Source of the DNA: an uncultured Gemmatimonadaceae bacterium
GTDB lineage: Bacteria; Gemmatimonadota; Gemmatimonadetes; Gemmatimonadales; Gemmatimonadaceae
Direction of reading: 5' to 3'
Assembly: GCA_963716745.1 (NCBI GenBank)
Contig: OY970320.1
Location: 960,001 to 1,024,000 of the forward strand
Length of the DNA stretch: 64,000 nt
The notes under the pieces are model-generated. The model did not search any database. It saw nothing but the letters and a program-made list of their open reading frames with translations, and had not been told where the DNA came from. Position 1 is the first letter of the stretch. Each line of letters begins with the position of its first letter. Shown here piece after piece: positions 13,284 through 58,203 of this stretch. The position numbers and the translations under genes are program-made.

Positions 13284-13312
13284 GATCGTCGAAGGTACTG
13301 CGAGTTGCTGCA

Positions 13313-13519: not shown

Positions 13520-13543
13520 AAATACATCTCTATCGTCCCCTAG

Positions 13544-13775: not shown

Positions 13776-13808
13776 AGTCGACTGCTCGAGAATCATTTCA
13801 AAAAGCAA

Positions 13809-13881
13809 CAGGCCCGGAGGGACTTGAACCCCCAACCGCTGGTTTTGGAGACCAGTGCTCTACCAGTTGAGCTACGGACCT
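13809..13881 (-). tRNA. tRNA-Trp(CCA)
   Basis: AGGTCCGTAGCTCAACTGGTAGAGCACTGGTCTCCAAAACCAG...TTCAAGTCCCTCCGGGCCTG. Confidence 0.95.
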
Positions 13882-13924
13882 AACGACCGCGACGGCCTCG
13901 GATCCTCCGCTCCTCCCCCCCCAG

Positions 13925-13999
13925 GGTGACCGAGGGGAATTGAACCCCCAACCCCCGGAGCCACAGTCCGGTGCTCTAACCAATTGAGCTACGGTCACC
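13925..13999 (-). tRNA. tRNA-His(GTG)
   Basis: G(-1)GTGACCGTAGCTCAATTGGTTAGAGCACCGGACTGTGGCTCCGG...CGGTCACC. Confidence 0.95.
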
Positions 14000-14798: not shown

Positions 14799-17066
14799 AT
14801 GAGGAGATTCACGATCATTCTGGCGGCGTCGCTCATCGCCCCGCACGTGGCGGCGCAGGTCACCGGCAATACGGTCTTCTCACCGCCGCCGGTCCCGCCC
14901 GCCGATTCCGGCTGGCCCCGCATTGTCCAGACCAAGGCGGACACCTTCACCGCGTACCAGCCACAGCTGGATTCGTGGGAGGGGAATCAGGTCGTGGCAC
15001 GCATGGCGGTGTCGGTGCTGCCCAACGGCGCGCGTGACTCGCTGTTCGGCGTCGTGGAGTTCACCGCGCGCACGGACGTCGACAAGGCGAACCGCACGGT
15101 CTATCTCGAGGCGATGAAGATCACCTCCGTGAAATTCCCGACCGCGCCGGACCGCGAAGCAGGCTACCTCGCCGTGCTCACGACGAAACTGCCCGCGCGA
15201 TCGCACGCGATCCAGCTCGATAAGCTCGAGGCGGCGTTGCAGGTGATCGGCGGCACTCGGCAGATGACGAAGCACACACTCGCCAACGCGCCGCCCGCCA
15301 TCGTCTTCTCGCCGGTGCCCGCGGTGCTGGTCCCGATCGACGGCGCGCCGGTGTGGCGGCCGATGAAGGGCACGAAGCTCACGCGCGTGATCAACACCGC
15401 GCCGGTGCTCGTGAAGTCGTCGCAGACGAAGATGCTGTATCTGCACGTGTTCGATGGTTGGCTGCAGGCGGCCGACACGACTGGCCCGTGGACGGTCACA
15501 AAGAGCGCGCCGGTCGAGACGGTGAACGATCTCAATGTCGTGCTGCGCGCGCTGGTCGATTCCGGCGATGCCGACCCGCTCTCCGGCGCGCCTTCCACGC
15601 CGTACTCGCAGGTGCCGCTGCCGTCGTTGCTCAAGCCGCCGGTGCCGAAAGTGATCATCGCGACGAAGACCACCGAGCTCATCGTCACCGACAGCGCGCC
15701 CAAGTGGGCGCCGATCACCGGCGTGCCGCTGCAGTACGTCAAGAACACCAGCGGCCGCATCCTGCGCGACACGACGGACCACAAGATCTACATTCTGCTC
15801 TCGGGCCGATGGTTCACGTCAATGGCACTCGCCGGACCGTGGACGTACGTGCGTGGCGCGGATCTGCCCAAGTCGTTCGCGCAGATCCCGGACTCCAGCG
15901 CAATGGAGAACGTGCGCGCGGCGATCCCCGGAACGCCGCAGGCCGAGGAAGCGCGGATCGAGAATTCGATCCCGCAAACGGAGACGCTGAGCCGCACGGG
16001 CACGAAGGCCGAGGCGGTGGAGATCGACGGTGCGGCCAAGATCCTGCCGCTCGAGCTCACGGGGCTGCAGTACGTCTCGAATGCGTCGCGTCCACTGATC
16101 GAGGTCACCTCCTCGAGCTGGTACCTGTGCGAGAACGGCGTGTGGTTCAACGGCCCGTCAATGACGGGCCCGTGGGCGGTCGCGACCACCGTGCCCGACG
16201 CGATCTACCAGATCCCGCCGAGTTCACCGTTGCACTATGTGACATACGTGAGAGTGTACGATTCGTCGGCGGATTCGGTGTGGGTGGGCTACACGCCCGG
16301 CTACACCGGCGTGATCCTGGACGATGAGAACGTGGCGGTGTACGGCACGGGTTACGGGTACACCTCCTGGATCGGCAATGACTGGTATGCGCCGCCGTTC
16401 ACCTACGGCTACGGCGCGAACATCGGGTGGACGCCGTGGTACGGCTGGCGCTACGGCGCCGGTTACGGCTATGCCTGGGGCTGGGGCGGGTACGGACTCG
16501 GTTCGTATCGCGGCGTGGGCCGCTGGGGCGTGGGAGACTGGGGCTCCATGACGGGAAGCGTGTACGACCGGTGGCTCGACGGCGGCCGCGCGAAGTTGTA
16601 CGGCGGCGTCGATCCTCGCATGGGCAATCCGTGGGGCGACCGGTTCAGCATGTCGTTCAACTCACGCACGGGGTGGGCCGCCGCCGGCCAGTATGGCGCC
16701 GTGGGGAACGTGTTCACTGGCGTGTACGCCGATGGCATGTACGCCGCGGGGATCTACGGCGGCTACGGCGCGTACGCGGGTGGCTATTACAACTACGGCG
16801 CGTACGCCGACTACGCCGCACGCTGGGCGTACCGGAACAACGTGTACGGGGACCGCAACGGGAACGTGTTCCGTCGCGACGGCTACGGCAGCTGGAGCGG
16901 CAACGGCGTGCGCGGCTGGGGTGGAGTGGACGCAGGCCGCGCCGCGACATTGAACCGGATGGACGGAGCGCGCGGGATCGGCGAGACGAGAGCGGGAGGG
17001 TTCAATAATGCGGGAGGGGCACGCGCACGGTCGGGCGGGATGAGAGGGGGCGGCCGAAGACGCTAA
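14799..17066 (+). CDS. Large secreted protein with a Gly/Tyr/Trp-rich C-terminus (paralog of 42829)
   Basis: Signal peptide; WPR...YQPQLDSW, LSGRWF, IPGTPQA, IPPSSPLHYVTYV, GYTPGY motifs shared with 42829. Confidence 0.8.
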   Translation: MRRFTIILAASLIAPHVAAQVTGNTVFSPPPVPPADSGWPRIVQTKADTFTAYQPQLDSWEGNQVVARMAVSVLPNGARDSLFGVVEFTARTDVDKANRTVYLEAMKITSVKFPTAPDREAGYLAVLTTKLPARSHAIQLDKLEAALQVIGGTRQMTKHTLANAPPAIVFSPVPAVLVPIDGAPVWRPMKGTKLTRVINTAPVLVKSSQTKMLYLHVFDGWLQAADTTGPWTVTKSAPVETVNDLNVVLRALVDSGDADPLSGAPSTPYSQVPLPSLLKPPVPKVIIATKTTELIVTDSAPKWAPITGVPLQYVKNTSGRILRDTTDHKIYILLSGRWFTSMALAGPWTYVRGADLPKSFAQIPDSSAMENVRAAIPGTPQAEEARIENSIPQTETLSRTGTKAEAVEIDGAAKILPLELTGLQYVSNASRPLIEVTSSSWYLCENGVWFNGPSMTGPWAVATTVPDAIYQIPPSSPLHYVTYVRVYDSSADSVWVGYTPGYTGVILDDENVAVYGTGYGYTSWIGNDWYAPPFTYGYGANIGWTPWYGWRYGAGYGYAWGWGGYGLGSYRGVGRWGVGDWGSMTGSVYDRWLDGGRAKLYGGVDPRMGNPWGDRFSMSFNSRTGWAAAGQYGAVGNVFTGVYADGMYAAGIYGGYGAYAGGYYNYGAYADYAARWAYRNNVYGDRNGNVFRRDGYGSWSGNGVRGWGGVDAGRAATLNRMDGARGIGETRAGGFNNAGGARARSGGMRGGGRRR

Positions 17067-17310
17067 CGGCGTGAGTCGTAACCCTGACTCCGTGAGTTCC
17101 GAGTCGTGCGTCGTGGACCACGACCTGCGTGCGTCGCGACCCGAACGCCGTGAGTGACAACTCACGGCGTTCTGCGTACTCACGGAGTTCGGGGTGCGAC
17201 GCACGGAGTGTCGGGTCGCGACGCACGGTGTCAGTGGTCCACGACGCACGACTCGGTACTCACGGCGTTCGGGGTACGAGTCACGGCGTTCGGGTCGCGA
17301 GTCACGCCGT
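17065..17310. repeat. Family C inverted-repeat element, no ORF
   Basis: Ends aacggcgtga ... tcacgccgt; internal cgagtcgtgcgtcgtggaccac and gtggtccacgacgcacgactcg arms; lies between convergent genes. Confidence 0.9.
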
Positions 17311-33110: not shown

Positions 33111-33467
33111 ATGATCTCGGTATTCTACATCCTCATCGGCCTCGCAGCCGGCGTCCTCGCAGGCCTCTTCGGGATCGGCGGCGGCATCCTGATCATCCCG
33201 GCGCTGGTGCTGCTCCTGAAGATGGACCCGCAGACGGCGACCGGCACGTCGCTCGGCGCGCTGCTGCTTCCCGTGGGTGCACTCGGCGCGTGGGCCTTTT
33301 GGAAACGCGGCCACGTGGACATCAACGGTTCGCTGCTGCTGGCGCTGGGACTCTTCGTCGGCGCGTATTTTGGCGCGCAGCTGAATCAGACGTTGTCCCC
33401 CGAGAGCGCGCGGCGGGCGTTCGCAGTGTTCCTGGTGTTGGTGGCTGGGAAAATGTGGGTGGGCTAG
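33111..33467 (+). CDS. TauE/SafE (TSUP) family membrane protein, half-size
   Basis: GLFGIGGGILIIP, ATGTSL. Confidence 0.85.
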   Translation: MISVFYILIGLAAGVLAGLFGIGGGILIIPALVLLLKMDPQTATGTSLGALLLPVGALGAWAFWKRGHVDINGSLLLALGLFVGAYFGAQLNQTLSPESARRAFAVFLVLVAGKMWVG

Positions 33468-33469
33468 GA

Positions 33470-33578
33470 CGCGGGGCGCGGGGCTCGGGACTCGCCGCGG
33501 GATGTCGGGAAAAGCGACGTTGAGACCAGCGCGCCGTTCTCGCGTCCCGCGGCGCGTCCCGCGTCCCGCATCCCGCGC
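33470..33578. repeat. Palindromic element, family A/B variant
   Basis: gcggggcgcggggctcgggactcgccgcggga ... tcccgcggcgcgtcccgcgtcccgcatcccgcg; lies between convergent genes. Confidence 0.8.
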
Positions 33579-33587
33579 AGTTTTAGT

Positions 33588-35627
33588 TCAGTGGTTGACC
33601 CCCACCGTAAGCCCCGCGAAGTAGATGCGCTGCGGGGCCGGTTCGTAGTATTGGCCGCCGGTGGCGTTCACGACAACTGAGCCCACGTAGCGCGCGCCGA
33701 ACACGTTCGATACGCCGATCACCGGTTGGAGCCACGGGCGTCCGAAGAGCGCCGTGCCGCCCGCGCGCAGGTTCACCACCACGTAGCCCGGCGCCGACGC
33801 GGTGTTCGCGTCGTCCGCCCACACGGAGCTCTTGCCCACCACTTCGGCGGTGCCGAACAGGCTGTGCCAGTGGTACGTGCTCTGCACCTGCACCACGTTC
33901 TCGGGCACACCGGGCACGGTGTTGCCATCGTAACGGCTCGAGTCGACGACGAAATCCACGAACTGGAAGCGCGACAGACTGTAGGCGAAGCCGAACTCCA
34001 CGGGGCCGACATTCGTGTTGACGCCGAATTCGACCCCAAGTCGTCGCGTGCGGCCGGCGTTGCGGTAATACACTCGGCCGCCGCCGCCCACCACCTGGTA
34101 CGGGATGAGTTCCTGTTGCACTTCGGTATCGTAGAGCGCGAGATCGTACGCCCACTTCGCGCTCAGGATACCCTTGGCGCCGATCTCGTAGTTCCACGAG
34201 TGTTGCGGCTTGAGATCGGGATTGATGCCGGCGCTGCCATCAGGGTGATTCGCGAGTTCGGTCGCCGTCGGCGTCTCGAATCCCGCCGCGATATTCGCAT
34301 ACAGCGAGTGCAGCGGCGCGATGCGCGCGACGATGCCGAACATCGGACTCACGGCGCTCATGGTCGTGTGACCGGAGTTGTCGCCGTCGGAAAGGAAGTG
34401 GTCGTCCACGGTGAACTTGGTCAGATCGCCGCGGAGCCCAAGCGTGAGCGTGTAATCGCGCGCGACCTCCAGTTCGTCGCGCACGTAGGGGCCGGCCGTG
34501 GACACGATCTCCGTTTGATCGAGCGTGAGCGTGCCCTTTGTCATCGGGAGCACGGGACACGCGGCGGTGGGCGTGACGACGCCGTTGCAATTGTTCCAAT
34601 TCTGCCGGTCGTCATTCTGAAGTGAAGCGTCGATGCCGGCGGTGAATCGATTCAGCAATGTTCCAAGATGCCCGGGCCAGATGCCGCGAACGGACCCGCC
34701 ATAGGAGAATCGGTCGACGTTCACCACGCCGAAGGTGAGCGGATTGTACAGATCGCGCGTGCCGCCGAAGAGTTGCGCGGAGATCACGCCACCGCTGTCC
34801 GTGGCGCGCTGCGCCGAGAGTCCCACCTGGATCTGCTTGACCGCCTTGGAGGCATTCTTCAGCACCGAGCGCGGGTCGGCCATGCGCGGATTCGAATCCA
34901 GCTCGGCTTTGGTGAGCGCGCCCGGATTCTGCGCGAGCGGCATGTCGAGTCCCATGGCCTGCACGCCCAGGTCCCACTTCCCCGCGGCGAGCAGCGCGTG
35001 GCCGTAGCCGTTCGTGAGCTGCACGCTTGCGTGTTCGCGATAGCCGTCGCTGCTCGTGTAGCCGTAGTTCGCATCCCACCCACCGCCGGCGTACGCACCG
35101 CCGAGTACGCCGGTGAGTCGTTCGGAGTTGTAGCCGGCGAACGATGTGCGCACCTCGCCGGCAAGCGGATCCACCGGCGGCGGCGCGGAACGGAAATCGA
35201 TCACACCGCCGCTCGCGTTGCCATACAGTGAACTCGCCGCGCCGCGCATCGCCTCGATCCGGCCGATGTCCTCGAGATCCAGATAGTCAATCGGCGTCTG
35301 CCCATCGGGGAGCGTGAGCGGCATGCCGTCGCGCAGGATGCGAATGCCGCGCACGCCGAAGGACGAACGCGCGCCCACGCCGCGGATCGAGATGCGCGGA
35401 TCCTGCGACGGATTCGTGCGATCCGAGATGACGACGCCATTCAGCGCCAGCCCGGTCTCGCTGAGCTGCACATGCCGCTGGCCCGGCCGCTGGCTGTCGG
35501 GCGTTTGCGCACTGATCGCGTATGGCAGGTCGAGGGTCGACTGCCCCGCGTCACGCGCGACGGTGACGACGGGGGCGAGTTTCTGCGCGACGGCGCTGTC
35601 TGCTTGCGCGCACGCCGCGAAGGGCAT
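33588..35627 (-). CDS. TonB-dependent receptor (YncD-like)
   Basis: Plug SIRGVGARSSFGVRGI..DGMPLTLPDGQ, RGAASSLYGNASGGVI; C-terminal YYEPAPQR. Confidence 0.9.
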   Translation of the reverse strand: MPFAACAQADSAVAQKLAPVVTVARDAGQSTLDLPYAISAQTPDSQRPGQRHVQLSETGLALNGVVISDRTNPSQDPRISIRGVGARSSFGVRGIRILRDGMPLTLPDGQTPIDYLDLEDIGRIEAMRGAASSLYGNASGGVIDFRSAPPPVDPLAGEVRTSFAGYNSERLTGVLGGAYAGGGWDANYGYTSSDGYREHASVQLTNGYGHALLAAGKWDLGVQAMGLDMPLAQNPGALTKAELDSNPRMADPRSVLKNASKAVKQIQVGLSAQRATDSGGVISAQLFGGTRDLYNPLTFGVVNVDRFSYGGSVRGIWPGHLGTLLNRFTAGIDASLQNDDRQNWNNCNGVVTPTAACPVLPMTKGTLTLDQTEIVSTAGPYVRDELEVARDYTLTLGLRGDLTKFTVDDHFLSDGDNSGHTTMSAVSPMFGIVARIAPLHSLYANIAAGFETPTATELANHPDGSAGINPDLKPQHSWNYEIGAKGILSAKWAYDLALYDTEVQQELIPYQVVGGGGRVYYRNAGRTRRLGVEFGVNTNVGPVEFGFAYSLSRFQFVDFVVDSSRYDGNTVPGVPENVVQVQSTYHWHSLFGTAEVVGKSSVWADDANTASAPGYVVVNLRAGGTALFGRPWLQPVIGVSNVFGARYVGSVVVNATGGQYYEPAPQRIYFAGLTVGVNH

Positions 35628-35685
35628 TCGCCATGGACGCGAGGACTAAGAGATCTCGGCGCATGGGGCGAATCTATCCGTACTA

Positions 35686-35787
35686 CGCGGGAAGCGGGAA
35701 GCGGGAAGCGCCGCGATGAGCGGGAACAGATGAGGGGCCCTCGTCAGTTCTCGCATCATCGCGGCGCTTCCCGCTTCCCGCTTCCCG
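35686..35787. repeat. Palindromic element, family A
   Basis: cgcgggaagcgggaagcgggaagcgccgcgatga ... tcatcgcggcgcttcccgcttcccgcttcccg. Confidence 0.9.
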
Positions 35788-35793
35788 AGCACT

Positions 35794-37936
35794 TCAGTTG
35801 CTCCTCCCCCCGCGCACCACGGTCAGTGAGTACGGCGCCACGATGAGCGCCGCACCTGCGTTGAGTGTAGAGCGCTCCGGCGGCTGATCGACGGTGGGAG
35901 CGCCGTTCTCTCCGGCAGCGTGCCAGACATACTGTTTGCTGGAGAATCGGATCACCGTGCGCGCGCCGTTCATCGCGCCGCCATAGCGGCTGCCGAACTT
36001 CAGCGACACGCGGTAGCTATGAAGCGGATCCTTGTTCACGAGCAGCGTGCTCCAGCTGCCGTCCGGCCGGTGGAGCACGTACGCCGAGAGCACTTCGTTG
36101 CCGAGCGAATCGCGCGCGTCGCTCTCGGCGGCGAACATTCCGTTCTTGCCCTCGAGCGCGGGCCAGTCGCGAGTCAACATGCGTGCGCCATGGTAGGTCG
36201 CGGTGTTGAAGCGGATCTTCCGGTCCTGTCCGGCAAGGAAGAGCATGTTGTTCCCCCACGAGTCGCAGTGCGGAGCGCGCTCGAGCCAGCTCGGCTCCCA
36301 GCCGTACAGATACGCCGTGCTCCCGCCGAGCGAGAGGAATCGGCCGACGATGTCGGCGTTGAGCAGCGCGCCTTCGATGTCCACCTCGGCGCGGCCGGCG
36401 AAGGCGGAATAGCCGTACTCCGCGATCACGCGCGGGATCGCGGCGGGCATTCCATCCTTCTCCACCTGGGCGAGGCGGTCGGTGAGACGCGCCGACGCCG
36501 CGGCGAGCTGCGGCGCGTACGGTCCGCAGATATCGTCGTACGGATACCACTCGAACGAGAAGAAGGTGAGATCGCCGGGACGCCCGCGCGCGCGCAGCGT
36601 GCGCATGAAGCGCGGGATCCACGGATCGCCCGCGCTGTCGTTGGGCCATGCGAACATCACGCGGCTCTCGAGCCCCTGCATGCTGGGACCGCCGAGTTGC
36701 GCATCGGGGCGTGCGGCGCGCAATGCGCGCGCGAATTGCGTGTAGAGCTCGCCGTAATCTTCGGGCGCGATGTACTGTCCGTCGGGCTCTTCGCCCATCT
36801 CGATGCGGCCAACGGCGTACCCGCGCTTCGCGAGAAAGCGGAGCTCCGCCACTGCATTCTCCGGCGTGCCATAGAGCACCGGCACAGGGATCATCGCGGG
36901 GCGGCCGCCCGTGAGTCCGCTCGTGAAGATCCGGTCGAAGCCGGGCTGCTCGAGGTCGAGATCGATATCCTCGGCGCGGTGCCAGGGATCCGTGGTGGAA
37001 GCGTAGGCGGTCGATTGCTTCTCGCGCGCTGGGGCGTGGCGCACGACATCGCGCAGCGTCGTGCCCTTCATCGTACCGATCTCGATCTCGCGGATCGCGT
37101 AGCCGGCGGAGTCTCGCGCGTCTTCGGCGAATCGCGGCGCGGCTCTCGCGCTCTGTGTCATGACGATGCGCACGAAGCGCGCGGTCACGCTGTCCTGCGA
37201 GAGACGGCGCAGTTCGATGCCGCCGCGTCCGTCATGTTCATCGCCGCCGCCGAACGTCACCCAACGGCCGGGCGGATTCTCGTCCACGTCGTTCACGATC
37301 ACGCCGCGCCAGTACTGCACGCGGAACGCCGCGGCCCACGGCACGCCCCAGTGGATGCGAATGCGCATTCACCGGCAGCGCGCGGCCGAGGTCCACGATC
37401 ACCCACTGGGGATAGGTCGAATCGGGAAGGCCGGTGAAGCGATGATCGAGGTACGGATTGCTCTTCCAGAATGTCGCGGTATCGCCGTCGTCGAGCCGGG
37501 AATAGCCGGTGTTGTCCGCCTGGTCGATCGAATTGCCCCGGCGCGGAAGGCGGTAGCCGTGCGCGAGGAGGATCGGGGTCGCCGAGGAATCGTCGGACGT
37601 CCAGTAGCCGCGGCGATGCGCGCTGTCGCTCCAGCGGCCGCTCGGATTCCAATGCCACGCTTCGATGCCGAGTTCGGTGCGCAGGCGAAGCGTTGCGAGC
37701 GAGAAGCCGGCATTCGACATCGCGCGGATATTCGCGGCGGTATAGATCTGTTTTATCGCGCCCTTCGCGTGGCCATCGAGGCCTGCGCCGAAGGTTTCGC
37801 GGGCGTCGAAGGTGTTTATTGCGGGGCGGTCGGAGCTGATCGTGATCGTCGCGTCGCGCGTTTGCGCGAGGGCGGGGGCGCAGAGGCATGCGAGCGTTAG
37901 AGCGACGGATATACTGCGGAAAGCGAACATCATCAC
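35794..37936 (-). CDS. Secreted discoidin (F5/8 type C)-containing glycoside-hydrolase-like protein (frameshift ~37370)
   Basis: Signal peptide; DDGDTATFWKS and QWVIVDLG (discoidin), EMGEEPDGQ and IAEYGYS (GH-A-like). Confidence 0.75.
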
Positions 37937-41395: not shown

Positions 41396-42661
41396 ATGAA
41401 AGTCCTCCGTCTCGTCGGCGCACTGCTCGCGGCGGTCGCATTGATGTCGCCGCCCGCCGCGTCCCAAAGTTCCGGCACGGTTGACCTCGGCGTCTTCGCG
41501 CGGCTGAATTCATTGGACGCGAGCTACGGCACAGCCACGGGCGGCGGCGGTGGATTCCGGGCGGGCTATTTCATCTGGAAGAATCTCGAGCTTAACTTCG
41601 ACCTCTCGCAGAGCACGAACAGCTCGAACGTCGACAGCCTGGGCGACATGACGTATCAGCCGTGGCATCTGCGCGCCGAGTACTTCTTCCCGACGGGCGA
41701 CAGCTGGTCGCTGCTGGTGGGCGCCGGCTATGGGCACGAGACGTTCCGGCAGAGCGGCACGAACGGATCCGACAACGCGATCGCCTTCATCCTCGGCATG
41801 CGCGCGACGCTCGGGACTCGCGTGTACGCGATGCTCGACTACACGGGCGACTACTCCACCAGCCCCGCCGACAAGAGCGCGCGGACCAAGAACACATTGA
41901 ACAACGGGCTGGAACTCGGCCTCGGATTCCTGTTGTTCGGCAAGGAAGAGACCAAGGTGGCCGAGCCCGCGCCGGCGCCGCCGCCGGCCGCCGCCGCGGC
42001 CCCTGCCGCCGCGGCCGTCATGGCGCCCGCCGATGATGACAAGGACGGCGTCGTGAATACAGCGGACAAATGCCCCAACACGCCCGCGGGTGAGAGCGTG
42101 GATGCGAACGGCTGCTCGCAGAGCCAGCTCGACAATGATCACGACGGCGTGATGAATAATCTGGACAAGTGCCCCAACACACCGGCGGGCCAGCCGGTGG
42201 ACGCGAATGGATGCTCGGCGTCGCAGCGCGACAGCGATGGCGACGGCGTGATGGACGACAAGGACACGTGCCCCGACACCCCGGCCGGCACGGCAGTGGA
42301 TGCGACCGGCTGCCCGCTGCACCCGTTGGTGCTGGAGGGAGTGAAGTTCGAGAGCAACAAGGCCGTGCTGCTGCCCGGCTCGACGACGACGCTCGACAAG
42401 GTGGCGGCGGGACTCCTGGCGCACACCACTGTCCGGATCGAGATCGAGGGTCATACGGACAATTCGGGCACCGCGGCGTACAACATGAAACTGTCGCAGG
42501 AGCGCGCCGACGCCGTGAAGGCGTATCTCGTGTCGAAGGGAGTCGCCGCCGACCGCATCGTCGCCAAGGGTTACGGCGAAACGGTTCCGCTGGTGCCGAA
42601 CACGTCAGCCGCGAACAAACAGGAGAATCGGCGGGTCGAGGTGAAGCAGCTCAATCCGTAG
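41396..42661 (+). CDS. OmpA-family outer-membrane protein with thrombospondin type-3 repeats
   Basis: N-terminal barrel, three DxDxDGV..DxCPxTP repeats, EGHTD..NMKLSQERA..NRRVE. Confidence 0.92.
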   Translation: MKVLRLVGALLAAVALMSPPAASQSSGTVDLGVFARLNSLDASYGTATGGGGGFRAGYFIWKNLELNFDLSQSTNSSNVDSLGDMTYQPWHLRAEYFFPTGDSWSLLVGAGYGHETFRQSGTNGSDNAIAFILGMRATLGTRVYAMLDYTGDYSTSPADKSARTKNTLNNGLELGLGFLLFGKEETKVAEPAPAPPPAAAAAPAAAAVMAPADDDKDGVVNTADKCPNTPAGESVDANGCSQSQLDNDHDGVMNNLDKCPNTPAGQPVDANGCSASQRDSDGDGVMDDKDTCPDTPAGTAVDATGCPLHPLVLEGVKFESNKAVLLPGSTTTLDKVAAGLLAHTTVRIEIEGHTDNSGTAAYNMKLSQERADAVKAYLVSKGVAADRIVAKGYGETVPLVPNTSAANKQENRRVEVKQLNP

Positions 42662-45193: not shown

Positions 45194-47705
45194 GTGAGCC
45201 GCGCGGCGAGTGCGGCCCTTGTAGTCATCACCGCGTGTCTCGCGGCCACCGCGGCGCGGGCGCAGGACTCCGTCTCCACGGCGGCGGGCGCCGAGTACGG
45301 GATCTCCGGTCCGCTCGGTTGGCTCGACCGCTGGCTGTTCGGGTCGCGCTATCGGACCCTGTGGACCGACACCGTGCGCGCGCACGTGCTTCGCGCTCCC
45401 ATGACGCTCGGCGGGCTGCGACCGCTGAGCGCGGACACCGGCCTGCGCAGCGGCGTGCTCAACCTGAGCGGGCCGCGTTCCGACGCGTACACATTCCGTC
45501 TCGTCGATCCGCCGGTGAGCTCGGCGCTGCCCGACGAGCTGCGACTCGGCGTGGTGATCGGACCGGTGCAGGATCTGGTGAGCGCGCTGCATCCGGGCGC
45601 CGCGCTCATCGTGCCGCCGCTCGCTCGCGCGGCCGGCGTGGGTGACTCGCCATCGGACATGGAATACCTGGCGGCTGACCGTTCGCTCGGCGCCCTCAGT
45701 TCCACCTTCGCGGACAAGCTCGGCTATTTCCAGACCGAGCCTGAGGTCGCACACTCGGCGTCGACGCGTGAACTCATCGAGAAGATCCGCAGCGCCGACG
45801 CGCCGCGCGTGGACGCTCACGCATACCTTCGAGAGCGGTTGTTCAATGTGTACGTCGGCGAGACCGAACTCTATCCGACGGAGTCCCGCTGGCGCCTGCA
45901 CGGCACGCCGCCGGTGTGGACTCCGGAGGCGCGGAACCGCGATGCGGCCTTCGCGAACTTCGACGGCCTGGTGACAGCGCTCGCGCGCATCGCGGTTCCA
46001 CAGTTCATGAGATTCGGACCCGCGTACGATCCATACCTCGGCGAGACCGCATATCTGCTCGCCGTGGACCGCACGCTGCTCGGCGCACTCGACACCGCGG
46101 CGTGGGACAGCACCGCACGCGCCATGCAGTCGTCGCTCACCAATGCGGCGATCGACAGCGCTATCGCCACGATGCCGCCCGCTTGGCGCATCACGAATGG
46201 CGCTCAGCTCGCGGCGGCATTGCGTGCGCGGCGCGACGGGCTGCCCAAGATCGCGCACGCGCTGTACCTGATGGTGGCCAAGCACGTGGATCTGTACGCG
46301 CCGGCAGCGGCGGGGCGCATCCTCGCCTGGCGCACCGAGCCCGGCGCGCTGCGCATCCGAGATGCCCGGCATGGATCGCACCTTCCTCTCGAGCGAGACG
46401 CACGAGGTGACGCTCTTCCTGGAGGGCGCCGATCACACCGTGCTCGTTCGAGGCGCAGCGTACGGCGGACCCGAACTTCGCGTGGTGACCGGCACGGCGC
46501 ACGCGACGATCATCGATTCGGCGACAGCGGTCGCGCGCACCCTCTCCGTGGACGACAGCTCCGGCCACGCGACTATCGACAGCGCCGCCGCGGGAGCACC
46601 GCCGCGCGTTTCACGGCGAACCGTCGTGCCGCCCGACGTCACGCCGAGCGGAACGGGTTCGGCCACGCGTCCCGCCGACGGCGTACGATACGGGCCGGTG
46701 ATCTGGTTCGATCTGTTCGGCAATCTGGGCGTGCTGTTCGGCGGCGGCGTGGAGCGCATCCGGTACGAGCACGGTTTCGCACCGTGGAGCTCGCGACAAC
46801 GGCTGCGCGCGGCGTACGCGACATCGCCTAATGAGTACGCGGTAGAGTATGACGGCACTTTCCGCTTTGAGCACGCGGCGTCCGACTTCAATCTCGCGCT
46901 CAGCCGGTCGGGCATCGGCATTCTGCGCTTCTATGGCTACGGCAACGCGACCGTGCGCACTCAGCCCGACGAGTTCTATTCGGCGAACCAAGTGGCGTAT
47001 ACCGTGGCACCCGCGGTGCAGCTGCCGTGGAGCGCGCGCGACACGCTGAGCGTGGGGCTCGTGTACAAGGATGTGAGCACGAGCACCACGGGGGATCGAT
47101 TCATCACCATTTCCAAGCCGTTCGGTTATCCCGAATTCCGTGAGGCGGGCGCGCGTTTGATGGTGCGGCGCGACACGCGCGACTCACCGGTGGCGGCGCA
47201 CAGCGGCTGGCTCGTGATCGCGGGGGGCGACTACTTCCCGAAAGCGCTCGATGTGCTGCGGCCGTTCGGCGGGGTGAACGCGGCCGTGTCCACGTACTGG
47301 ACGCCGCCGGCGCAGGACGCGCTCACGTTCGCGGTGCGGGTGGCGGGTCAGAAGATATGGGGACCGTTCCCGGTGTTCGAGGCGGCGTACATCGGCGGTG
47401 CCACCACGGTGCGCGGACTTCCTCCGCAGCGATACGCGGGCGATGCGAGCCTGTACAGCAATCTCGAAGCCCGACTGCGCGTAGGAAATCTGCCCTTCGT
47501 GGTGCGCTGGGATTTCGGCGTGAGCGCGATCATGGACGCGGGGCGGGTATTCGTGACCGGCGGAGAGGATCCGGACATTTGGCACACGGGATTGGGAGGG
47601 GGGATATGGGCGATCCTGCCGGATCGGTCGGCGATGGTTTATCTCACGCTCGTGCATAATGAGAAGACATGGGGGGTGGATGCAGGAACAAAGTTCATCT
47701 ACTAA
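45194..47705 (+). CDS. BamA/TamA-like (Omp85-type barrel) outer-membrane protein with an N-terminal extension (frameshift ~46330-46360)
   Basis: RRDTRDSP, YIGGATTVRG..PQRYAGD, DAGRVF, GLGGGIW, C-terminal aromatic residue. Confidence 0.75.
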
Positions 47706-48408
47706 CGGCGTGATTGACGAGTCGTGCGTGTTCGACCACTGACGGCGTACGTACCGAGTCGTGCGTGTTCGACCACGACCTGCGTGAGTGAACTCGCACG
47801 GTACTGCGCGCCATGAAGGGATGAGGGGCAACGGCGGGCGGTGGAGTATAGTGCCGCGTCTCGAGCGAGTGGGGGCGTGGGGTGGGTTACGACAAGTGGG
47901 AAGCGTCCGTGCCGGAGGAGATGCGCAACGACGCGATTTGGAATATGCGGGTGTACCGCGCGGCGCTGTATGCGGCGGAACTCGGTACGCGCGATTCCGC
48001 GCGACTGCGCGAGCAGGGCGGCCCTCTAGACGTCGCCGACCAACTTCAGCGCGCGACGAGTTCTATCGGAGTGAACATCGCCGAGGGATATAGCCGCCTC
48101 AGCAAGCGCGATCGAAGCCGCTTCTACGAGTATGCGCTCGGCTCCGCCCGTGAATCGCGCGAGTGGTATTATCGCACTCGAGGAGGCCTAGGCAACGACG
48201 TCGCGAATGCGCGCATCGCCCTCCACTCGGCGATCACCCGAATCCTATTGGCGATGCTGAAGAACTCGCGCGAACCCGCCGCCCCGACCGCCGTCTGACT
48301 CCCGACGGTCGGGGCGCGACTCACGCCATGCGTGGTCGAACACGCACGACTCGGTACTCACGCCGTGCGTGGTCAACACGCACGGACATCGGTCGGACTC
48401 ACGCCGTT
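47704..48408. mobile_element. Family C element carrying a four-helix-bundle gene
   Basis: Terminal AACGGCGTGA and TCACGCCGTT; perfect 27-bp inverted arms at 47751-47777 and 48331-48357 around the CDS. Confidence 0.7.
47882..48298 (+). CDS. Four-helix-bundle protein (23S rRNA IVS / Avd-like family)
   Basis: DQLQRATSSIGVNIAEGYSR...RFYEYALGSARE family signature. Confidence 0.92.
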   Translation: MGYDKWEASVPEEMRNDAIWNMRVYRAALYAAELGTRDSARLREQGGPLDVADQLQRATSSIGVNIAEGYSRLSKRDRSRFYEYALGSARESREWYYRTRGGLGNDVANARIALHSAITRILLAMLKNSREPAAPTAV

Positions 48409-50646: not shown

Positions 50647-51363
50647 TCAGTTCCCGCGCGGTGCCGGCGGCGGGCTGACCCCATCTTCGACGTTGATCGC
50701 TTCCGCCGGCGCACCCCGGCCGCCGAGGATCACGATCGTGTATGCCTTGCCGGCTTCGAGATGCACCGGCTTGAGGATCATCGGTTTCACCGACTTCGCG
50801 TTCACGCGGACGTCGAGCGTGATCGTCGCAGGGGCGACGTCCTTGTAGCCCGCCTCGTCCGTGAAGTCGGCGCCCTGGAACAGCGCCGCCTTCTCGCCGA
50901 GCACCGCGAAATCGGCGCTCTTCACCGACGGCGATGCGTTGATGACGCGGATGCGCGCCTTGCCCGGATCGGCCGCGACATTGTCGCGCACGACGCGGAT
51001 CTGGGTCGCACCATTATCACCCGGCAGTATGAGCACCGTGTAACGCACGCCGTCGAGCATCATCTCGCGATCGTCGGCCAGCAGCTGGTTGTCATCCGCC
51101 GCCAGCGCGCGGAGCGCGATGAGCGAATCCCTCACCTGGGCGTAGGGCGTGACCTGCTTGTAGTTCACGCCGCTGAATAGCGTGCGATCGTCGCCGGTGA
51201 CGTCCACCTTCTTGCCGGACGGGAGCGCGTTCACGACGCGCACCATCGATCTCCCGGTGCGAGCGGCGTCCGTGCCGGAGGGACTCCCCTGCCGGCACGC
51301 GGCCGCCGCGGCGATCGCCATCGTGACGGCGAGCAACTGGGCCGAGGTGATCATTGCGCTCAC
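50647..51363 (-). CDS. DUF4397-like lipoprotein
   Basis: Two VRVVNA/IRVINASP repeats, LEAGKAYTIV, lipobox AAAC. Confidence 0.85.
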   Translation of the reverse strand: MSAMITSAQLLAVTMAIAAAAACRQGSPSGTDAARTGRSMVRVVNALPSGKKVDVTGDDRTLFSGVNYKQVTPYAQVRDSLIALRALAADDNQLLADDREMMLDGVRYTVLILPGDNGATQIRVVRDNVAADPGKARIRVINASPSVKSADFAVLGEKAALFQGADFTDEAGYKDVAPATITLDVRVNAKSVKPMILKPVHLEAGKAYTIVILGGRGAPAEAINVEDGVSPPPAPRGN

Positions 51364-51566
51364 ATCGTGGGGTACGAGCGCTCGAACTCGGCGACCTGAC
51401 GCTCGATCTCGTCGCGGCCTTCGCCGTACTTCCGCTGCAGCAGCCCCACGAGCTGGTCGCGCTTGCCGGCGATGTACTCGAGATCATCGTCGGTGAGCTT
51501 GCCCCACTTCTCGCGCACTCTGCCCCGCGCCTGCTTCCATGAACCTTCGATCTGATTCCAATTCAT
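51360..51566 (-). CDS. csbD: CsbD/YjbJ-family stress protein
   Basis: MNWNQIEGSWKQARGRVREKWGKLTDDDL..IAGKRDQLVG..Q.KYG; ggagg RBS. Confidence 0.92.
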   Translation of the reverse strand: MNWNQIEGSWKQARGRVREKWGKLTDDDLEYIAGKRDQLVGLLQRKYGEGRDEIERQVAEFERSYPTM

Positions 51567-51600: not shown

Positions 51601-51705
51601 AAAAGGCGCGCCCGAGCGCCGCGTGTGCGGCGTTCATGCGCGCCTTCGACTGGCAGACCGACTGCGCTGCCCGACAAGGCGACCCGGCCACCGACCCCCG
51701 GGCCT
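51601..51705 (-). promoter_or_regulatory. Leader attenuator motif, copy 1 (upstream of csbD)
   Basis: CCTTGTCGG-GCAG..CTGC-CAGTCGAAGGCGCGC...GCGCGCCTTTT on the minus strand. Confidence 0.8.
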
Positions 51706-52867: not shown

Positions 52868-53133
52868 GCCACGGCCCGCTCGCGTGCGATCCGCGCCGCG
52901 CGCGACGCGCGCATGCGGCGCAGGACTTCCCGTGCGCGGCGCACATGCCTCGCGCGTTCGATCACCGCGTTCATCACCAGCGCCAACACGAGACCGACGC
53001 CCACCAGCGCCATGATCCCGTACAGCATTGCACGCCCGCTGCCGACCGGCGCCGAGTGGATGCGCGAAAAGCCGAGCGACGCCGCGGTGCCGCCCTGGAG
53101 CAGCAAGAAGATCGTAGACGGACGCATAATCAC
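52864..53133 (-). CDS. Small membrane protein
   Basis: One or two TM segments; translationally coupled to both neighbours. Confidence 0.55.
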   Translation of the reverse strand: MIMRPSTIFLLLQGGTAASLGFSRIHSAPVGSGRAMLYGIMALVGVGLVLALVMNAVIERARHVRRAREVLRRMRASRAARIARERAVA

Positions 53134-53321
53134 CTCACCCGTTGATTGGCGGCCTTGTTCACCCAGAGCGGCAGACCGGCGGGCAGCGCCTGCGCCGCCG
53201 CGATCAACAACCGCCGCACTTCGGACGCTGGATTCTTGGTCTCGCGCCGGCGCGCTGGGACGCGCCGGGATTCCAACACACGCTCAAGTACCGCGATCTC
53301 GGACTCCTGCTCATGGCTCAT
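53130..53321 (-). CDS. Small hypothetical protein
   Basis: aaggag RBS before the ATG at 53321; stop overlaps the next start. Confidence 0.5.
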   Translation of the reverse strand: MSHEQESEIAVLERVLESRRVPARRRETKNPASEVRRLLIAAAQALPAGLPLWVNKAANQRVR

Positions 53322-53348: not shown

Positions 53349-53456
53349 AAAAACGAAGGCGCGTTGGCCGCCTCCGAGGAGAGCGACCAACGCGCCTTCG
53401 ACTGACGAAGCCTGCGCTTCGTCCGACAAGGGAGGCCGGCCGTTGCACCGGCCCTC
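53349..53456 (-). promoter_or_regulatory. Leader attenuator motif, copy 2 (upstream of the AI-2E operon)
   Basis: CCTTGTCGG-ACGAAGC..GCTTCGT-CAGTCGAAGGCGCGTTGG...CCAACGCGCCTTCGTTTTT. Confidence 0.8.
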
Positions 53457-53496: not shown

Positions 53497-53646
53497 CTAC
53501 CGCGACTTCTTCGTGCGCTTGCGGTTCGATTTTCCCGCCTTCTGCAGCGCGATCGCTACCGCCTGCTTCTGGGGCTTTCCCTCATGCATCTCGGTCTTGA
53601 TGTTCTCCGAGACCGTCTCGCGCGAGGATCCTTTCTTGAGCGGCAT
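53497..53646 (-). CDS. 49-aa basic small protein (absent from the ORF track)
   Basis: Translated by hand: [49 protein letters not shown]; gggagggag RBS. Confidence 0.8.
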
Positions 53647-53671: not shown

Positions 53672-53770
53672 AAAAAAGAAAAGGCGCGTGAGATCGGTGT
53701 GGCTGATCTCTTCGCGCCTTCGACTCGCGAGTCGCTTCACTCGCCCGCCAAGGTGGCCGCTCACGCGGCC
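53672..53770 (-). promoter_or_regulatory. Leader attenuator motif, copy 3 (upstream of the 49-aa ORF)
   Basis: CCTTGGCGG-GCGAGT..ACTCGC-GAGTCGAAGGCGCG...CGCGCCTTTTCTTTTTT; TATAAT on the minus strand at 53794-53799. Confidence 0.82.
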
Positions 53771-53880
53771 TATGTCGCCCTGCTGGTTGTGAAATTATAC
53801 AGACCCATGAATCGCGCAAGAGGTCCAACACAAGAATTTTTCTAATGTGATGCTCCGCACACACGCTCTTATAATATGGA

Positions 53881-54612
53881 TTAAACGTGCTCCAGCAGCA
53901 GTTCCAGTTTGTGCCGCAGATCGCCGAGTGCCTTGGACTTGAACGCCCCCTTCGTCTCCTCGAGCACGGCCACCGTTTCCTTCACCGCGATCTGGAATTG
54001 CGCGCCACGCGGGCAGTTCATGAGCTGACACGGGTGCTGCTCAACCGATTGGTTCGTGAGCGCCTTGCCCAGCTGCTCGAGATCGGTGAGCGAACCCATC
54101 ACATTGCGCAGTGTGAGCGTGAGGAAGAGGTCCACCGGCACCTGGCCATCCGCGCCGCCCATCTTCGAGATGTGCTGGAACTCGTCGCGCCAGCCGCTCA
54201 GCCGCTCCTCGGTCTGGCGCATGGCCTGGAACGACCTAAAGCGCTTCACCGCGCGCGCCACCCGCTCGAGCAATTCGGGGAACGCGACGGGCTTCGTGAG
54301 ATAGGCCACCACGGGCAGGTCGATCGATGCGATCGCGCTGCGGACGGACGGGAATCCCGTCAGGATGATCACCGGCAATCCCCCGCTCTGCTCCGCGATC
54401 TTGCGCACCAGTTGGAGATCGGAGTTGCCGGGCATCTCGAGATCGGTGATCAGAAGGTCGAACGATTCGCTCGCCGCGGCCTTGAGCGCCGCGTCACCAT
54501 CCTGAACAGTGGTGCATTCGTATCCTTCCGCGCGCAACAGATCCGCGGTCGCGCTCAGGAAGGTCGGTTCGTCGTCCGCCAACAGGATCCTGCCGAGTGA
54601 CTTCCCGTTCAT
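53881..54612 (-). CDS. Response regulator with an unrecognised helical C-terminal output domain
   Basis: REC motifs LADDE, LITDLEMPG, ILTG, YLTKP; C-terminus CQLMNC...VLEETKGAFKSKALGDLRHKLE has no obvious HTH. Confidence 0.9.
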   Translation of the reverse strand: MNGKSLGRILLADDEPTFLSATADLLRAEGYECTTVQDGDAALKAAASESFDLLITDLEMPGNSDLQLVRKIAEQSGGLPVIILTGFPSVRSAIASIDLPVVAYLTKPVAFPELLERVARAVKRFRSFQAMRQTEERLSGWRDEFQHISKMGGADGQVPVDLFLTLTLRNVMGSLTDLEQLGKALTNQSVEQHPCQLMNCPRGAQFQIAVKETVAVLEETKGAFKSKALGDLRHKLELLLEHV

Positions 54613-57504
54613 GCCGTGTCCTCCTTCGTTGCGTGCAATGGTAGCGTGACGACGAACTCGCACCCTTCGCCGTCCACATCGTGTACGCCGATGGTGCCGC
54701 CGGCGGCCGTCACGGTGCGGCGCACGAGCGCGAGCCCGAGCCCCATGCCCCCGGTGCGCAGCCGCCCGCTCTTCGTGCTATAGAAGGGCTCGAAGATCCG
54801 TTCGCGCGACTCAGGCGGAATGCCCGCGCCGTGATCGCGCACGCGCAATTCGAAATGTCCGTTGTTCGCAATGGTGCGCACGGTCACGGTGCCGCCGCTT
54901 GGCGACGCCTCGATCGCGTTCTGCACCAGGTTGTAGGCGATCTGCCGGAGCAGCGCGCCGGGCAGCGGCAGGATGAGCGGCCCGCGACCGAGTTCCACCA
55001 CCACATGCACGCCGGTCGCGCGGTTCACCTGCTCGAGGAACGACACGCGCGTCGCCGATCACGGTCGCGATCGCCGCGCCGGCCTGCGAGTCGTGCTCCG
55101 GCCGGTACGTCTCGTAGAGTTGACGCGTCACCGCCGCGATGCGCGCCACCTCGCGCTCGATCGCGCCAACGTACTTGTAGTGCGGATGCGTCGCGGGGAT
55201 CGCGCCCTTGATGAGCAAGAACGAATTCTGGATGCCGGCCAGCGGATTGTTGATCTCGTGCGCCACCTGCGCGGCGACGCGCCCCATGGTGGTGAGCGTC
55301 TCCACCTCGCGCAGCGTCGCCTCGGCGCGCCGTCGTGCCGTGAGATCGCGCGCCTCCAAGAGCAGCTGCGTGTGTTCCTCGCTCTCGCCCGTGAGCGCCT
55401 TCACCGCGATCTCGATATGCGTCGCCTCGCCTGCCGGACCGCTGAATTCCTCCTCATACCGGCGCGTGAGCCCGCGTGCCGCCGCCGCGGTGGCGGAGCG
55501 CAGCCGCTCCTGCGCCTCGGGATTCCCGTGCCACCAGAGCGTGTTCCATGCGAGCTTGCCCCGCACGTCGTCGGCCGCGACGCCGAAGTCGTCCAGCGCG
55601 TGTTGATTGATCTCCACCACCAGGCCGCCGCGATCGAGCAGCAATTGGAATTGGAAGCCGCTGTCGAATACTTCGCGGAAGCGCTGCTCGGCGGCCTCGC
55701 GCGCCTGCGTGGCCGAGCGCGCGACCGTGACGTCGGCCTTGATGCCGACCATGCGCGCGGGATGGCCGCTGGCCGTGCGGTCCACCACGCGGCCGCGGTC
55801 CACGATCTGATGCCATTTGCCATCGCGCGCGAGCACGCGGTATTCGGCCTCGTAGCTGGGCCGCGCACCGCTGAGATGCTCCTCGATCTCACGGGCGAGG
55901 CGCGGCTGATCCTCGGGATGCACGAGCGCGATCCACGCGTCGCGGATCGGCGGCACCGATTCCGGATCGTATCCCAGGTAGCGCCAGATGCCCGGACTGT
56001 GCACCGATCCGCCGGTGAGCAGATCCCACTCCCAGATCCCGTCGGTCGTGCGCTCCAGCGCAGCGGTGATGCGCGAACGTTCGAGGTCGCGCACGCTCCG
56101 GAGCGAGCGCTGCGCGAAGCGCACGCTCACCGGCACCAGCCCGCTCACCGCGAATCCCATGAGCAGCACCAGCAGCGGCAGACTCGACCGCACGCCATCG
56201 ACGGTATCCTGCGTGGGCCATGCCGCGAGCGTGGCGTGCACCGCCCCGAGATCCAGACCAAGCCACTGTATCCACTGCCGCGTCGCGTCCGAATCGGCGG
56301 TGGGGCCGGCAAGGCGGCCAGCGCGGCCAATGATCGCGTAGTGGAATCCTCGCGAGGTATCGGGTATCACATCGCGGAAGAGCCGCGCGGTGCGCATTAC
56401 CGCGACCATCGTGCCGCTGCAGACATTGATCGCGCACGCCGGCGCGAGGATCACGAATCGCTTCGTCGCCGAGTCGAGCGGCAGGAAGGCGATGCTGTCG
56501 GGCAGCCTGGCATTGCGATTCACGTACGCGAGGGTCACCGAGTCCGCCCCCACGCCCGCGAGCGATGGCGAGGTGACCGTATCGATCACGCCGAGCGATG
56601 AGATCCAGCCGGCGGCCTCGAGACCGGGCACGTCGCGTTGCAGCGCTGCGATATCGCGGCGCTGCTGGTCGAACGACGCGCCGGACGCGCGCCACTCGCT
56701 CGCGCGATGGAGCGAGTGCGCCGTGACCACCGCCTCGCGCACGAGCACGCGCCGCCGCTCTTCGCCCGCTTGGCGCGTGAGCGCCACGACCTGATCGTTC
56801 TCGCGCGATGCGAGACCGCGCCAGAGCACGATGACCGTGACGACGCCCGCGATGCCGAGCGCCGTGGGCAGCCAGGTGGCGGAATCTCCGGAGAGCAGGC
56901 CGCGTGACCAGACGAGCGCGACATAGCAACTCCCGATCAGGAAGCCCGCGATCAAGACCTGGAGCGACGGGCCGGCGCCGAGCATGTCGATCGTGGTGTG
57001 CGTGATGCCGGTCGCGCGCGCGATGAGGAGCGTCGCCGCCACGGCGAGCAGCACGAACCCGGCGATGCCGACCGATGCATCTTCCGGTAGCAGCCGTCGA
57101 CGCGCCGAGACGACGGCCAGCGGCGTCGCGGCGGCGAGCACCAGTACCGCCGAGGCGAGCGCCATTGCGTCATGCGAGATCGTGGTGGGCGCGACCTGCG
57201 CGAGGAGACTCAGCACCGCGGTCAACTCCGCCATCAGCGCGGCTAGGAATGCGGAACGGTACCGCTGCTGAAGGAATTGCCAGAGCGCGAAGCCGATCGC
57301 GACCAGCGCGATCGATGCGAGCAACGGAAGGCGCGGCCAACCGGCCAAGGGCTGCGCGAGCCGTGAGAGCCCCGGCAATTCGCCCAGCATGCCGGCGATG
57401 CCCATGAGGCCGCTGACCACGGCATACACGTAGCCCGACCGGTACGCCGCGAGGGCGAGCGGTGACGTGAGTTCGGTTCGACGCGGTGAGTCCGATTCCG
57501 TCAT
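54609..57504 (-). CDS. Membrane-bound PAS/PAS sensor histidine kinase (frameshift ~55048)
   Basis: TM helices, PAS (DGIWEWD..VHPED), AHEINNPL, NLVQNA, DHGAGIP, FEPFYSTK, GMGLGL. Confidence 0.9.
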
Positions 57505-57521: not shown

Positions 57522-57604
57522 AACGAAAAGGCACGAACGCCGCGCAACGCTCGCGCGGAGATCCGTGCCTTCGGCTTTCGGAGCTCGCCTCCGCCCGCCA
57601 AGAC
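57522..57604 (-). promoter_or_regulatory. Leader attenuator motif, copy 4 (upstream of the histidine kinase)
   Basis: TCTTGGCGG-GCGGAG..CTCCGA-AAGCCGAAGGCACG...CGTGCCTTTTCGTT. Confidence 0.75.
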
Positions 57605-57728
57605 TTATTGCCATGTGCGATCCCTACAATAGTAAGGTATAGCGCCGAGTTTTCATGTGCGCAAGAGTCCGCGAATGCGGGGCTTGCGCCGTGGAACAAG
57701 CGGGCCTACGTTGGGTTTCAAGACACGC

Positions 57729-57829
57729 AGCCCCGCGGTTCGGGGCTCCTTGGCGGACGAGTGAAGCTGGCTCGTGAGTCGAAGGCGCGAACGGGATCGG
57801 TTCACCGATCTCCCGCGCCTTTTTTATTT
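57729..57829 (+). promoter_or_regulatory. Leader attenuator motif, copy 5
   Basis: CCTTGGCGG-ACGAG..CTCGT-GAGTCGAAGGCGCG...CGCGCCTTTTTTATTT. Confidence 0.82.
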
Positions 57830-57867: not shown

Positions 57868-57978
57868 GGACCGGCGATGCGGCCGGTCCCCTTAGCGGGC
57901 GAAGCAGCGGCTTCGTCAGTCGAAGGCGTGTTGGCGGTTCCCGATCCCAGGGAACCGCCGGCACGCCTTCAGTGCTTT
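57868..57978 (+). promoter_or_regulatory. Leader attenuator motif, copy 6 (upstream of the DUF1328 operon)
   Basis: CCTTAGCGG-GCGAAGC..GCTTCGT-CAGTCGAAGGCGTG...CACGCCTTCAGTGCTTT. Confidence 0.8.
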
Positions 57979-58023
57979 CCGGCAGCCGCACGCCGGTCAA
58001 TCGAATTCTTCAGGAGGTGTGCC

Positions 58024-58203
58024 ATGTTGCGTTGGGCCCTCGGGTTCCTGGTGCTGGCGTTGATCGCCGCCTTCTTCGGCTTCGGTGGCATCGCCGCCGC
58101 GTCCGCCGGCATCGCGAAGACGTTGTTCTTCCTGTTCCTGCTCATCTTCGCCGTCACGCTCATCCTGGGGCTGATGGCGGGAAGAAAAGTCACCGATCTC
58201 TGA
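58024..58203 (+). CDS. DUF1328 (UPF0391/YtjA) small membrane protein
   Basis: MLRWALGFLVLALIAAFFGFGGIAAASAGIAKTLF; aggagg RBS. Confidence 0.92.
   Translation: MLRWALGFLVLALIAAFFGFGGIAAASAGIAKTLFFLFLLIFAVTLILGLMAGRKVTDL

Follow-up and report, generated by a model that had tools for sequence, protein, structure and literature searches.

The locus contains a two-component system, encoded on the minus strand, and six copies of a leader motif distributed around it. We use 'the window' for the whole stretch of DNA analysed (64,000 nt) and P0001 for the response regulator and its gene; the features needed for the argument are as follows.

53881–54612 (stop codon included), minus strand: response regulator gene P0001, 243 aa, a receiver (REC) domain plus an uncharacterised output domain (from translation, Pfam and an AlphaFold2 model)
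54259–54588, minus strand: receiver domain, residues 9–118 (from Pfam, residues read from the sequence, and alignment)
53884–54249, minus strand: output domain, residues 122–243, helical, with C195-x4-C200-P-R and T220-K-x-x-F-K-S-K-x-L-G-x-L-R, without family or fold match
54609–57489, minus strand: cognate sensor histidine kinase, upstream of the regulator, read in two frames
51601–51680, minus strand: leader m1, motif (51637–51680) and terminator, ahead of a CsbD-like gene (51360–51566; CsbD at E 1.7e-19)
53349–53432, minus strand: leader m2, motif (53389–53432) and terminator, ahead of a 63-aa ORF (53130–53321)
53679–53754, minus strand: leader m3, motif (53711–53754, 62.2 bits) and terminator, ahead of a 49-aa basic ORF (53497–53646)
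57526–57604, minus strand: leader m4, motif (57562–57604, 51 bits) and terminator, ahead of the kinase–regulator operon
57747–57825, plus strand: leader m5, motif (57747–57791) and terminator, first of a tandem pair
57889–57985, plus strand: leader m6, motif (57889–57932) and a weaker terminator-like hairpin, second of the tandem pair

All six motifs were located, with the regulator gene between them, as an earlier reading of the sequence alone (the sequence-only reading) had described. Leader m3 starts 127 nt 3' of the regulator stop codon. Leader m6, at which our script detected no clean T-run, precedes a DUF1328 gene (58024–58203) followed by membrane and stress genes (with matches to Iron_permease and Phage_holin_3_6). 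Neither the 49-aa nor the 63-aa ORF gave a Pfam match.

The kinase gene ends where the regulator gene begins, its stop codon overlapping the regulator start by four bases (54609–54612). PAS_3, PAS_4 and HisKA domains are found in one ORF (54811–57489) and HATPase_c in another (54609–55046), with the change of frame falling between about 54953 and 55095; the system may therefore be inactive in this organism, or the assembly may carry an indel.

Several other features of the window may be mentioned here. A cluster of eight tRNA genes occupies 12608–13998 on the minus strand, and three tandem 99-nt coding repeats (42031–42327, plus strand) are 64–72% identical to the first. GC-rich palindromic repeats resembling REP elements, with CGGGAAG or CGGGACN units, occur at 2164–2292, 7070–7114, 8175–8278, 8802–8915, 12751–12871, 33465–33591 and 35681–35794. 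Members of a second, GTGAGTACCGAGTCGTGCGTCG-like repeat family lie at 47681–47789 and 48296–48374, and also at 9804–9891 and 17059–17310; inverted repeats of this family flank a 138-aa ORF (47882–48298).

The receiver domain of P0001 is intact, as had been supposed: Pfam Response_reg covers residues 9–118 at 82 bits (curated cut-off 30.2; E 4.5e-23), and the sequence and alignment supply the acidic pocket (D13/D14), the phospho-acceptor D57 (in LLITDLEMPG), T85 and K107. On this Pfam match and on the pocket, Asp, Thr/Ser and Lys residues, P0001 belongs to the CheY-like receiver (REC) superfamily. In the alignment the phospho-acceptor Asp is missing from some distant members of the family. The remaining stretch of about 120 residues had been described as helical, with a CQLMNC motif and a basic end, and this too is borne out by the sequence (CQLMNC is residues 195–200, and VLEETKGAFKSKALGDLRHKLE lies close to the C-terminus) and by the helices of the AlphaFold2 model.

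This C-terminal stretch defines a sizeable family of its own. A search with residues 122–243 found 673 relatives at E ≤ 0.001 in a collection clustered at 90%, and an exhaustive search of 50%-identity representatives gave 466 clusters at E ≤ 0.001, including 149 at E ≤ 1e-10. The best 120 of the 673 relatives are 63–99% identical, nearly all about 241 aa long, and have only PF00072 on record; the NCBI names of two of these 120 indicate Gemmatimonadota. The 'OmpR family' names that have been attached automatically to relatives have no domain match behind them. When 84 full-length sequences and 30 that are mostly C-terminal were aligned, the signature of the output domain read CxLxNCPR ... VLExTKxxFKSKxLGxLRxxLE, in which C195, C200, P201, L217, T220, K221, F224, K225, S226, L229, L232, R233 and L236 are near-invariant. 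The near-invariant polar residues of the domain are basic or carry a hydroxyl group (R202, T220, K221, K225, S226 and R233). The Cys pair C195-x4-C200 and the P-R that follows are kept in at least 90% of family members; the pair may serve a redox or metal input, either as a disulfide or as a metal site across a dimer. The domain is usually fused to REC (a Pfam scan found Response_reg in 81 of the 84 members) and sometimes to PAS: three relatives (P0184, P0213 and P0229) have one or two PAS domains where REC would be, and the output domain is on that account a portable effector module.

What kind of effector might it be? The absence of an OmpR, NarL, Fis, LytTR or ANTAR signature, remarked on in the sequence-only reading, holds in Pfam at E ≤ 1, where the tail of P0001 has no family above noise and Response_reg stands alone. 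Nor does any family for the tail occur among the 25 listed of the 70 Pfam families matched by the 84 members (E ≤ 0.1). The matches displayed from NCBIfam (25 of 98) cover the receiver part alone, and those displayed from PDB sequences (60 of 284) cover the receiver part, with a few reaching the linker helix. A profile of one family alignment (A5) against PDB sequences returned only nucleoporin coiled coils (E 0.5–0.7), and a search of the ESM Atlas gave no usable match to the output domain. A Fis-type helix-turn-helix at the C-terminal motif was considered and rejected, the spacing being unsuitable and a Pfam match lacking.

AlphaFold2, given an 84-row alignment, modelled P0001 with a mean pLDDT of 90.6 and a pTM of 0.76, and predicted helices at residues 111–151 (a prolongation of alpha-5 to residue 151), 160–186, 194–197, 201–219 and 227–242; modelled alone, the output domain had a pLDDT of 83.1. 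When the output-domain model was compared with the PDB by Foldseek there were eight matches at E ≤ 10, none of them at E ≤ 0.001 and none an ANTAR chain. The examination by AlphaFold and Foldseek that had been suggested for the domain thus matched no DNA-binding or enzymatic family or fold, for a model whose conserved half (residues ~190–243) was barely probed by the fold searches, the matches in the VIA-align comparison spanning model residues 1–68 alone. A homodimer prediction for residues 118–243 scored 0.19 against a mark of 0.42, which is evidence neither way.

Turning to the RNA, a loose pattern for the motif matched the window eight times against 1.54 expected, a count reached in none of 100 shuffles. 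A covariance model built solely from the six window copies (R1) was then run over the 3.29-Mb genome at E ≤ 1 and found ten matches: the six in the window, one just past its end and three elsewhere. The seventh copy (1024830–1024873, minus strand) lies 830 nt beyond the window end, ahead of a Ku-like gene (MARALWSGSLSFGLVSVPV...), and the other three, at positions 129441, 955882 and 3150074, are all far from the regulator. Going by translations and not by family search, as also for the Ku-like gene, one of these extra copies precedes a lipoprotein-like gene and one a gene with an SRPBCC/AHSA1-like start. Behind each of the ten genomic copies comes a GC-rich hairpin that ends in CGCGCCUUUU. Upstream of most leader copies, boxes resembling those of sigma-70 promoters (TTGCGC-N17-TAnnnT) could be seen by eye, for example at 53790–53830 on the minus strand and at 57630–57700 on both strands; leaders placed 3' of promoter-like boxes in this way would fit control after initiation. 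Many copies in the window's genome also have a GC hairpin (GGCCGC...GCGGCC) between box and motif.

The motif is a hairpin of about 43 nt, made up of a basal helix P1 (GCCUU/AAGGC), a bulged G35, a 3-bp helix, a small loop and a variable helix P2. The 3-bp helix comprises G6–C34, N7.N33 (mostly U.U) and C8–G32, which is invariant. G6–C34 covaries (GC 38, UA 10, AU 3, GU 1, unpaired 0), and in P2 all six pairs are changed on both sides among 55 distinct sequences from across the phyla. The GKCGG/NAGYCG internal loop of the sequence-only reading is better drawn as this 3-bp helix with the bulged G35. The G-N-C found on both strands could constitute a pseudo-symmetric site that would suit a dimer. 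Directly 5' of P1 there is a purine-rich stretch like GGUGUGGGUC or GGAUGGUCC at five loci from several phyla (L092, L096, L100, L102 and L105), and the RNA element may extend further 5' than we have modelled it.

The motif positions matched no Rfam 15 family, whether the threshold was the gathering score or E ≤ 1; this holds for the window and for six loci of other phyla. Two other identities for the motif were considered and rejected: a promoter of ECF type with −35 and −10 boxes, since the spacer is a covarying stem, and the Streptococcus yjbJ (CsbD-like) riboswitch candidate, which in the part of its source available to us (PMC11109978) is a two-hairpin motif confined to Streptococcus.

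The 3' strand of P1 has two possible partners. Its AAGGC pairs either with the upstream GCCUU, closing P1, or with the GCCUU–U-tract of an intrinsic terminator. Among 65 distinct motif matches, drawn from the window, its genome and other phyla, 54 have a competing strand that is complementary to AAGGCxx and followed by a T-run, the median distance being 42.5 nt. When whole leaders were folded, 43 of 61 had the terminator form as their minimum-energy structure. The leader design is a true competition between antiterminator and terminator.

How closely are the regulator and the RNA associated outside this organism? Eighty loci in species genomes (837 kb) were chosen by the peptide pattern of the output domain alone, as the best 80 of 185 relatives; their record titles place them in Planctomycetota, Verrucomicrobiota, Zixibacteria, KSB1, Eisenbacteria, Ignavibacteria, Armatimonadota, Gemmatimonadota and others, some of the MAG labels being doubtful. 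Over these loci R1, which had been built on the window alone, gave 42 matches at E ≤ 0.03, nearly all of them on the strand of the regulator and just 3' of its stop codon. A refined model (R2), built from 50 matches, gave 57 matches at E ≤ 0.1, with at least one in 46 of the 80 loci, counts that are partly circular because R2 was trained partly on these same loci. In 40 of the 80 loci an R2 match lies on the same strand within 500 nt downstream of the regulator (median 95 nt), a zone that makes up 2.4% of the searched space. The general arrangement in most phyla is a motif 44–370 nt after the regulator stop codon, on the same strand, and then a terminator; the motif instead precedes the regulator gene at L010–L012 and L020. 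In 34 of the 80 loci R2 found no motif within the flanks, and at those of the motif-less loci that were inspected, convergent genes or other sequence lay directly 3' of the regulator; two gemmatimonadote loci have a divergent, poorly scoring variant. A search for PAS-fused forms returned only REC-type loci and tandem paralogues, 18 further loci in all, of which 15 have an R2 match. Five genomes carrying the motif have between one and four matches each; in four of these every match is within about 1.5 kb of a regulator gene, and at least one directly adjoins it.

Domain and motif also go together when whole genomes are scored. Among 151 genomes of the window's phylum, 18 have the domain, 15 the motif, 14 both and 132 neither; among 121 genomes of a planctomycete order the corresponding numbers are 21, 12, 11 and 99. 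One-sided Fisher values for this co-occurrence are 2e-15 and 3e-9, respectively, and are descriptive only, overstating the case because related genomes are not independent. Within one genus of the window's phylum, three genomes have both domain and motif and one has neither. In all 11 double-positive genomes of the planctomycete order, the sole motif match is 50–110 nt 3' of the regulator gene. The exceptions are of both kinds. In the window's phylum, four genomes with the domain (G078, G126, G147 and G003) gave no motif match even to R2 at E ≤ 0.01; what follows the regulator was inspected in G126 and G147 and contains neither a canonical motif nor a canonical terminator. In the planctomycete order the motif was likewise not found in ten genomes that have the domain. 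Conversely, G122 and G166 have a plausible motif, and the output domain was not detected in them. The expectation that covariance-model matches would track the domain is thus sustained genome by genome in two phyla, and by position in many phyla, where the motif comes directly after the regulator gene. That regulator and RNA are functionally linked in some way is, we think, very probable.

The genes 3' of the motif are varied (as read from translations, they include DUF2905-like, MnmA-like, GvpA-like, HPt-like, pilin-like and sensor proteins). Since the regulator ahead of the motif stays the same while these genes change, it is the regulator, not a pathway, that the RNA accompanies. Two loci have tandem regulator paralogues, each with its own variant of the motif behind it (L100, 4431–4473 and 5585–5627; L102, 4385–4427 and 5531–5573). 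The motif strands are GCC/GGC in one and GUC/GAC in the other, so that the central pair stays Watson–Crick, and this hints at a paired divergence of protein and RNA.

These observations can be accommodated in a simple scheme. P0001 is the response regulator of the adjacent PAS histidine kinase, and its C-terminal ~120 residues are an effector module not described before, which would bind the ~43-nt leader hairpin in nascent RNA. By default, AAGGC would pair with the downstream GCCUU and U-tract, and transcription would terminate. If the regulator were phosphorylated at D57, P1 would be held closed, the base of the terminator could not form, and RNA polymerase would read through into the targets, which in this organism would be the regulator's own operon and stress-type genes (for CsbD, DUF1328, small basic proteins and Ku). 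We infer that the binding is physical, that it depends on phosphorylation and that its effect is to switch targets on. The most likely reading, and probably the correct one, is that P0001 represents a new class of antiterminator, distinct from ANTAR and controlled by phosphorylation; it is favoured because of the covariation, the adjacency, the co-occurrence, the competition between P1 and terminator, and the modular domain without a DNA-binding match. Counted against it are the motif-less loci and genomes, the domain-less G122 and G166, the split kinase and the missing Asp of some members. It is in essence what the sequence-only reading had put forward, and the want of a DNA-binding or enzymatic match, the co-occurrence with the motif and the terminator competition lend that proposal partial support, whereas its open-loop drawing has had to be given up and about half of the loci are motif-less.

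It is rather likely that the output domain itself contacts the RNA. The regulator might instead act indirectly, its output domain binding a protein (RNA polymerase, a Nus factor, Rho or a separate RNA-binding protein) that serves as a partner and reads the hairpin. Co-occurrence and adjacency mean a functional link and not contact, and the domain, predicted as a bundle of helices throughout, in which a long hairpin resembles a coiled coil and no fold for binding nucleic acid can be recognised, would suit a protein-binding role. However, no second conserved gene was seen beside the pair, the neighbours being variable; several genomes have no conserved pair besides the gene and the RNA next to it, and no further copy of the motif; and motif variants specific to each paralogue are more easily explained by direct reading. 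We therefore think indirect action unlikely.

DNA is the binding target of most response regulators, and a second alternative is that this one, too, is a DNA-binding factor, of a fold not yet recognised, the hairpin being an independent small-molecule riboswitch or attenuator that happens to share its regulon. The helix-loop-helix of the TKxxFKSKxLGxLR signature could contact DNA as well as RNA, and the RNA sequence is highly conserved, as in small aptamers. Against this, no helix-turn-helix or other DNA-binding family was found at E ≤ 1, or among the 25 families listed for the 84 members, and a visual inspection of the sequence ahead of the leaders revealed no conserved operator beyond the sigma-70-like boxes. 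Unlike riboswitch regulons, the genes that follow the motif share no pathway, and a motif present in single copy sits directly after the regulator gene. Such a combination seems to us improbable. Very improbable is a third alternative, that the RNA is cargo, a 3' element of the regulator transcript (a terminator with a stabilising hairpin, or a small RNA derived from the 3'UTR) with which the regulator's output has nothing to do: it would account for the usual place of the motif and terminator behind the regulator stop codon, but not for the copies ahead of the regulator gene or for the three distant genomic copies, which precede unlinked genes with promoter-like boxes of their own, and the competing P1/terminator design is that of a switch and not of a plain terminator.

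We return to the preferred reading, that of a phosphorylation-controlled antiterminator, in the light of known systems. Signal-dependent antitermination at repeated leaders has its precedent in the ANTAR regulators (AmiR, NasR/NasT and EutV). Like EutV, AmiR, NasT and Rv1626, P0001 is predicted to have REC joined by a long helix to a small helical module (in a full-length Foldseek alignment to the EutV–RNA structure, 6ww6_B, the TMq of the P0001 model was 0.53). As with ANTAR, fusions of the module to other sensors occur (here PAS), and its candidate target is a leader RNA that folds in competition with an intrinsic terminator, as in the 54 of 65 matches described above. There are also differences. 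P0001 has no match to the ANTAR family PF03861 at E ≤ 1, and ANTAR is absent among the 25 families listed for the 84 members (a genome search with PF03861 found no match in control genomes either, and so counts neither way). The conserved signature, CxLxNCPR and TKxxFKSKxLGxLR, is not that of ANTAR. The motif folds into one bulged hairpin containing a U.U pair, whereas ANTAR targets, according to the parts of two accounts consulted, consist of two hairpins with hexanucleotide loops (PMC8934654; 10.1101/2020.09.27.315978). A 2025 review of RNA-binding antiterminators (PMC12591593), in the portion available to us, connects no antiterminator domain other than ANTAR with response regulators.

The RNA has points of likeness to those small riboswitches that use a terminator as their platform, being a hairpin of ~43 nt with invariant unpaired nucleotides, situated directly before a terminator and sometimes in tandem (m5 and m6). 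Unlike them, it has no Rfam 15 match at E ≤ 1, its downstream genes have no shared pathway, and it tracks one regulator family. P0001, for its part, differs from the OmpR, NarL/FixJ, NtrC/Fis and LytTR regulators in having no recognisable winged-helix or helix-turn-helix output. In systems of the BglG/SacY/LicT type (with a CAT domain) and of the PyrR/TRAP/HutP type, a protein stabilises or blocks a 5' leader hairpin that overlaps a terminator. Control there is exerted through PTS phosphorylation or metabolites, whereas the input here is a receiver domain, and no sequence or fold match of P0001 to either type was found in Pfam, PDB, Foldseek or profile searches. No description of the regulator family or of the RNA was found in the literature searched, including the main texts of two genome-wide surveys for structured noncoding RNAs (PMC11109978 and PMC8632094).

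On balance we incline to the view that this is a second class of signal-controlled RNA-binding output, unrelated to ANTAR, which reads a pseudo-symmetric bulged hairpin, switches intrinsic terminators and occurs as a self-contained module in many phyla. If so, it would be a second receiver-linked RNA-binding output besides ANTAR, and a new entry among two-component outputs; hundreds of proteins from little-studied phyla that now go by 'CheY-like' or, wrongly, by 'OmpR family' would acquire a function, and Rfam would gain an RNA family that it lacks. A pair so small (a protein of 243 aa and a leader of ~80 nt), which many genomes have once and side by side, lends itself to direct tests in vitro and has appeal as an orthogonal, signal-controlled switch of transcription. 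In the window's organism, stress-type genes (CsbD, DUF1328, Ku and others) appear to be gated at the level of termination; general stress regulons have classically been described as under sigma-factor control.
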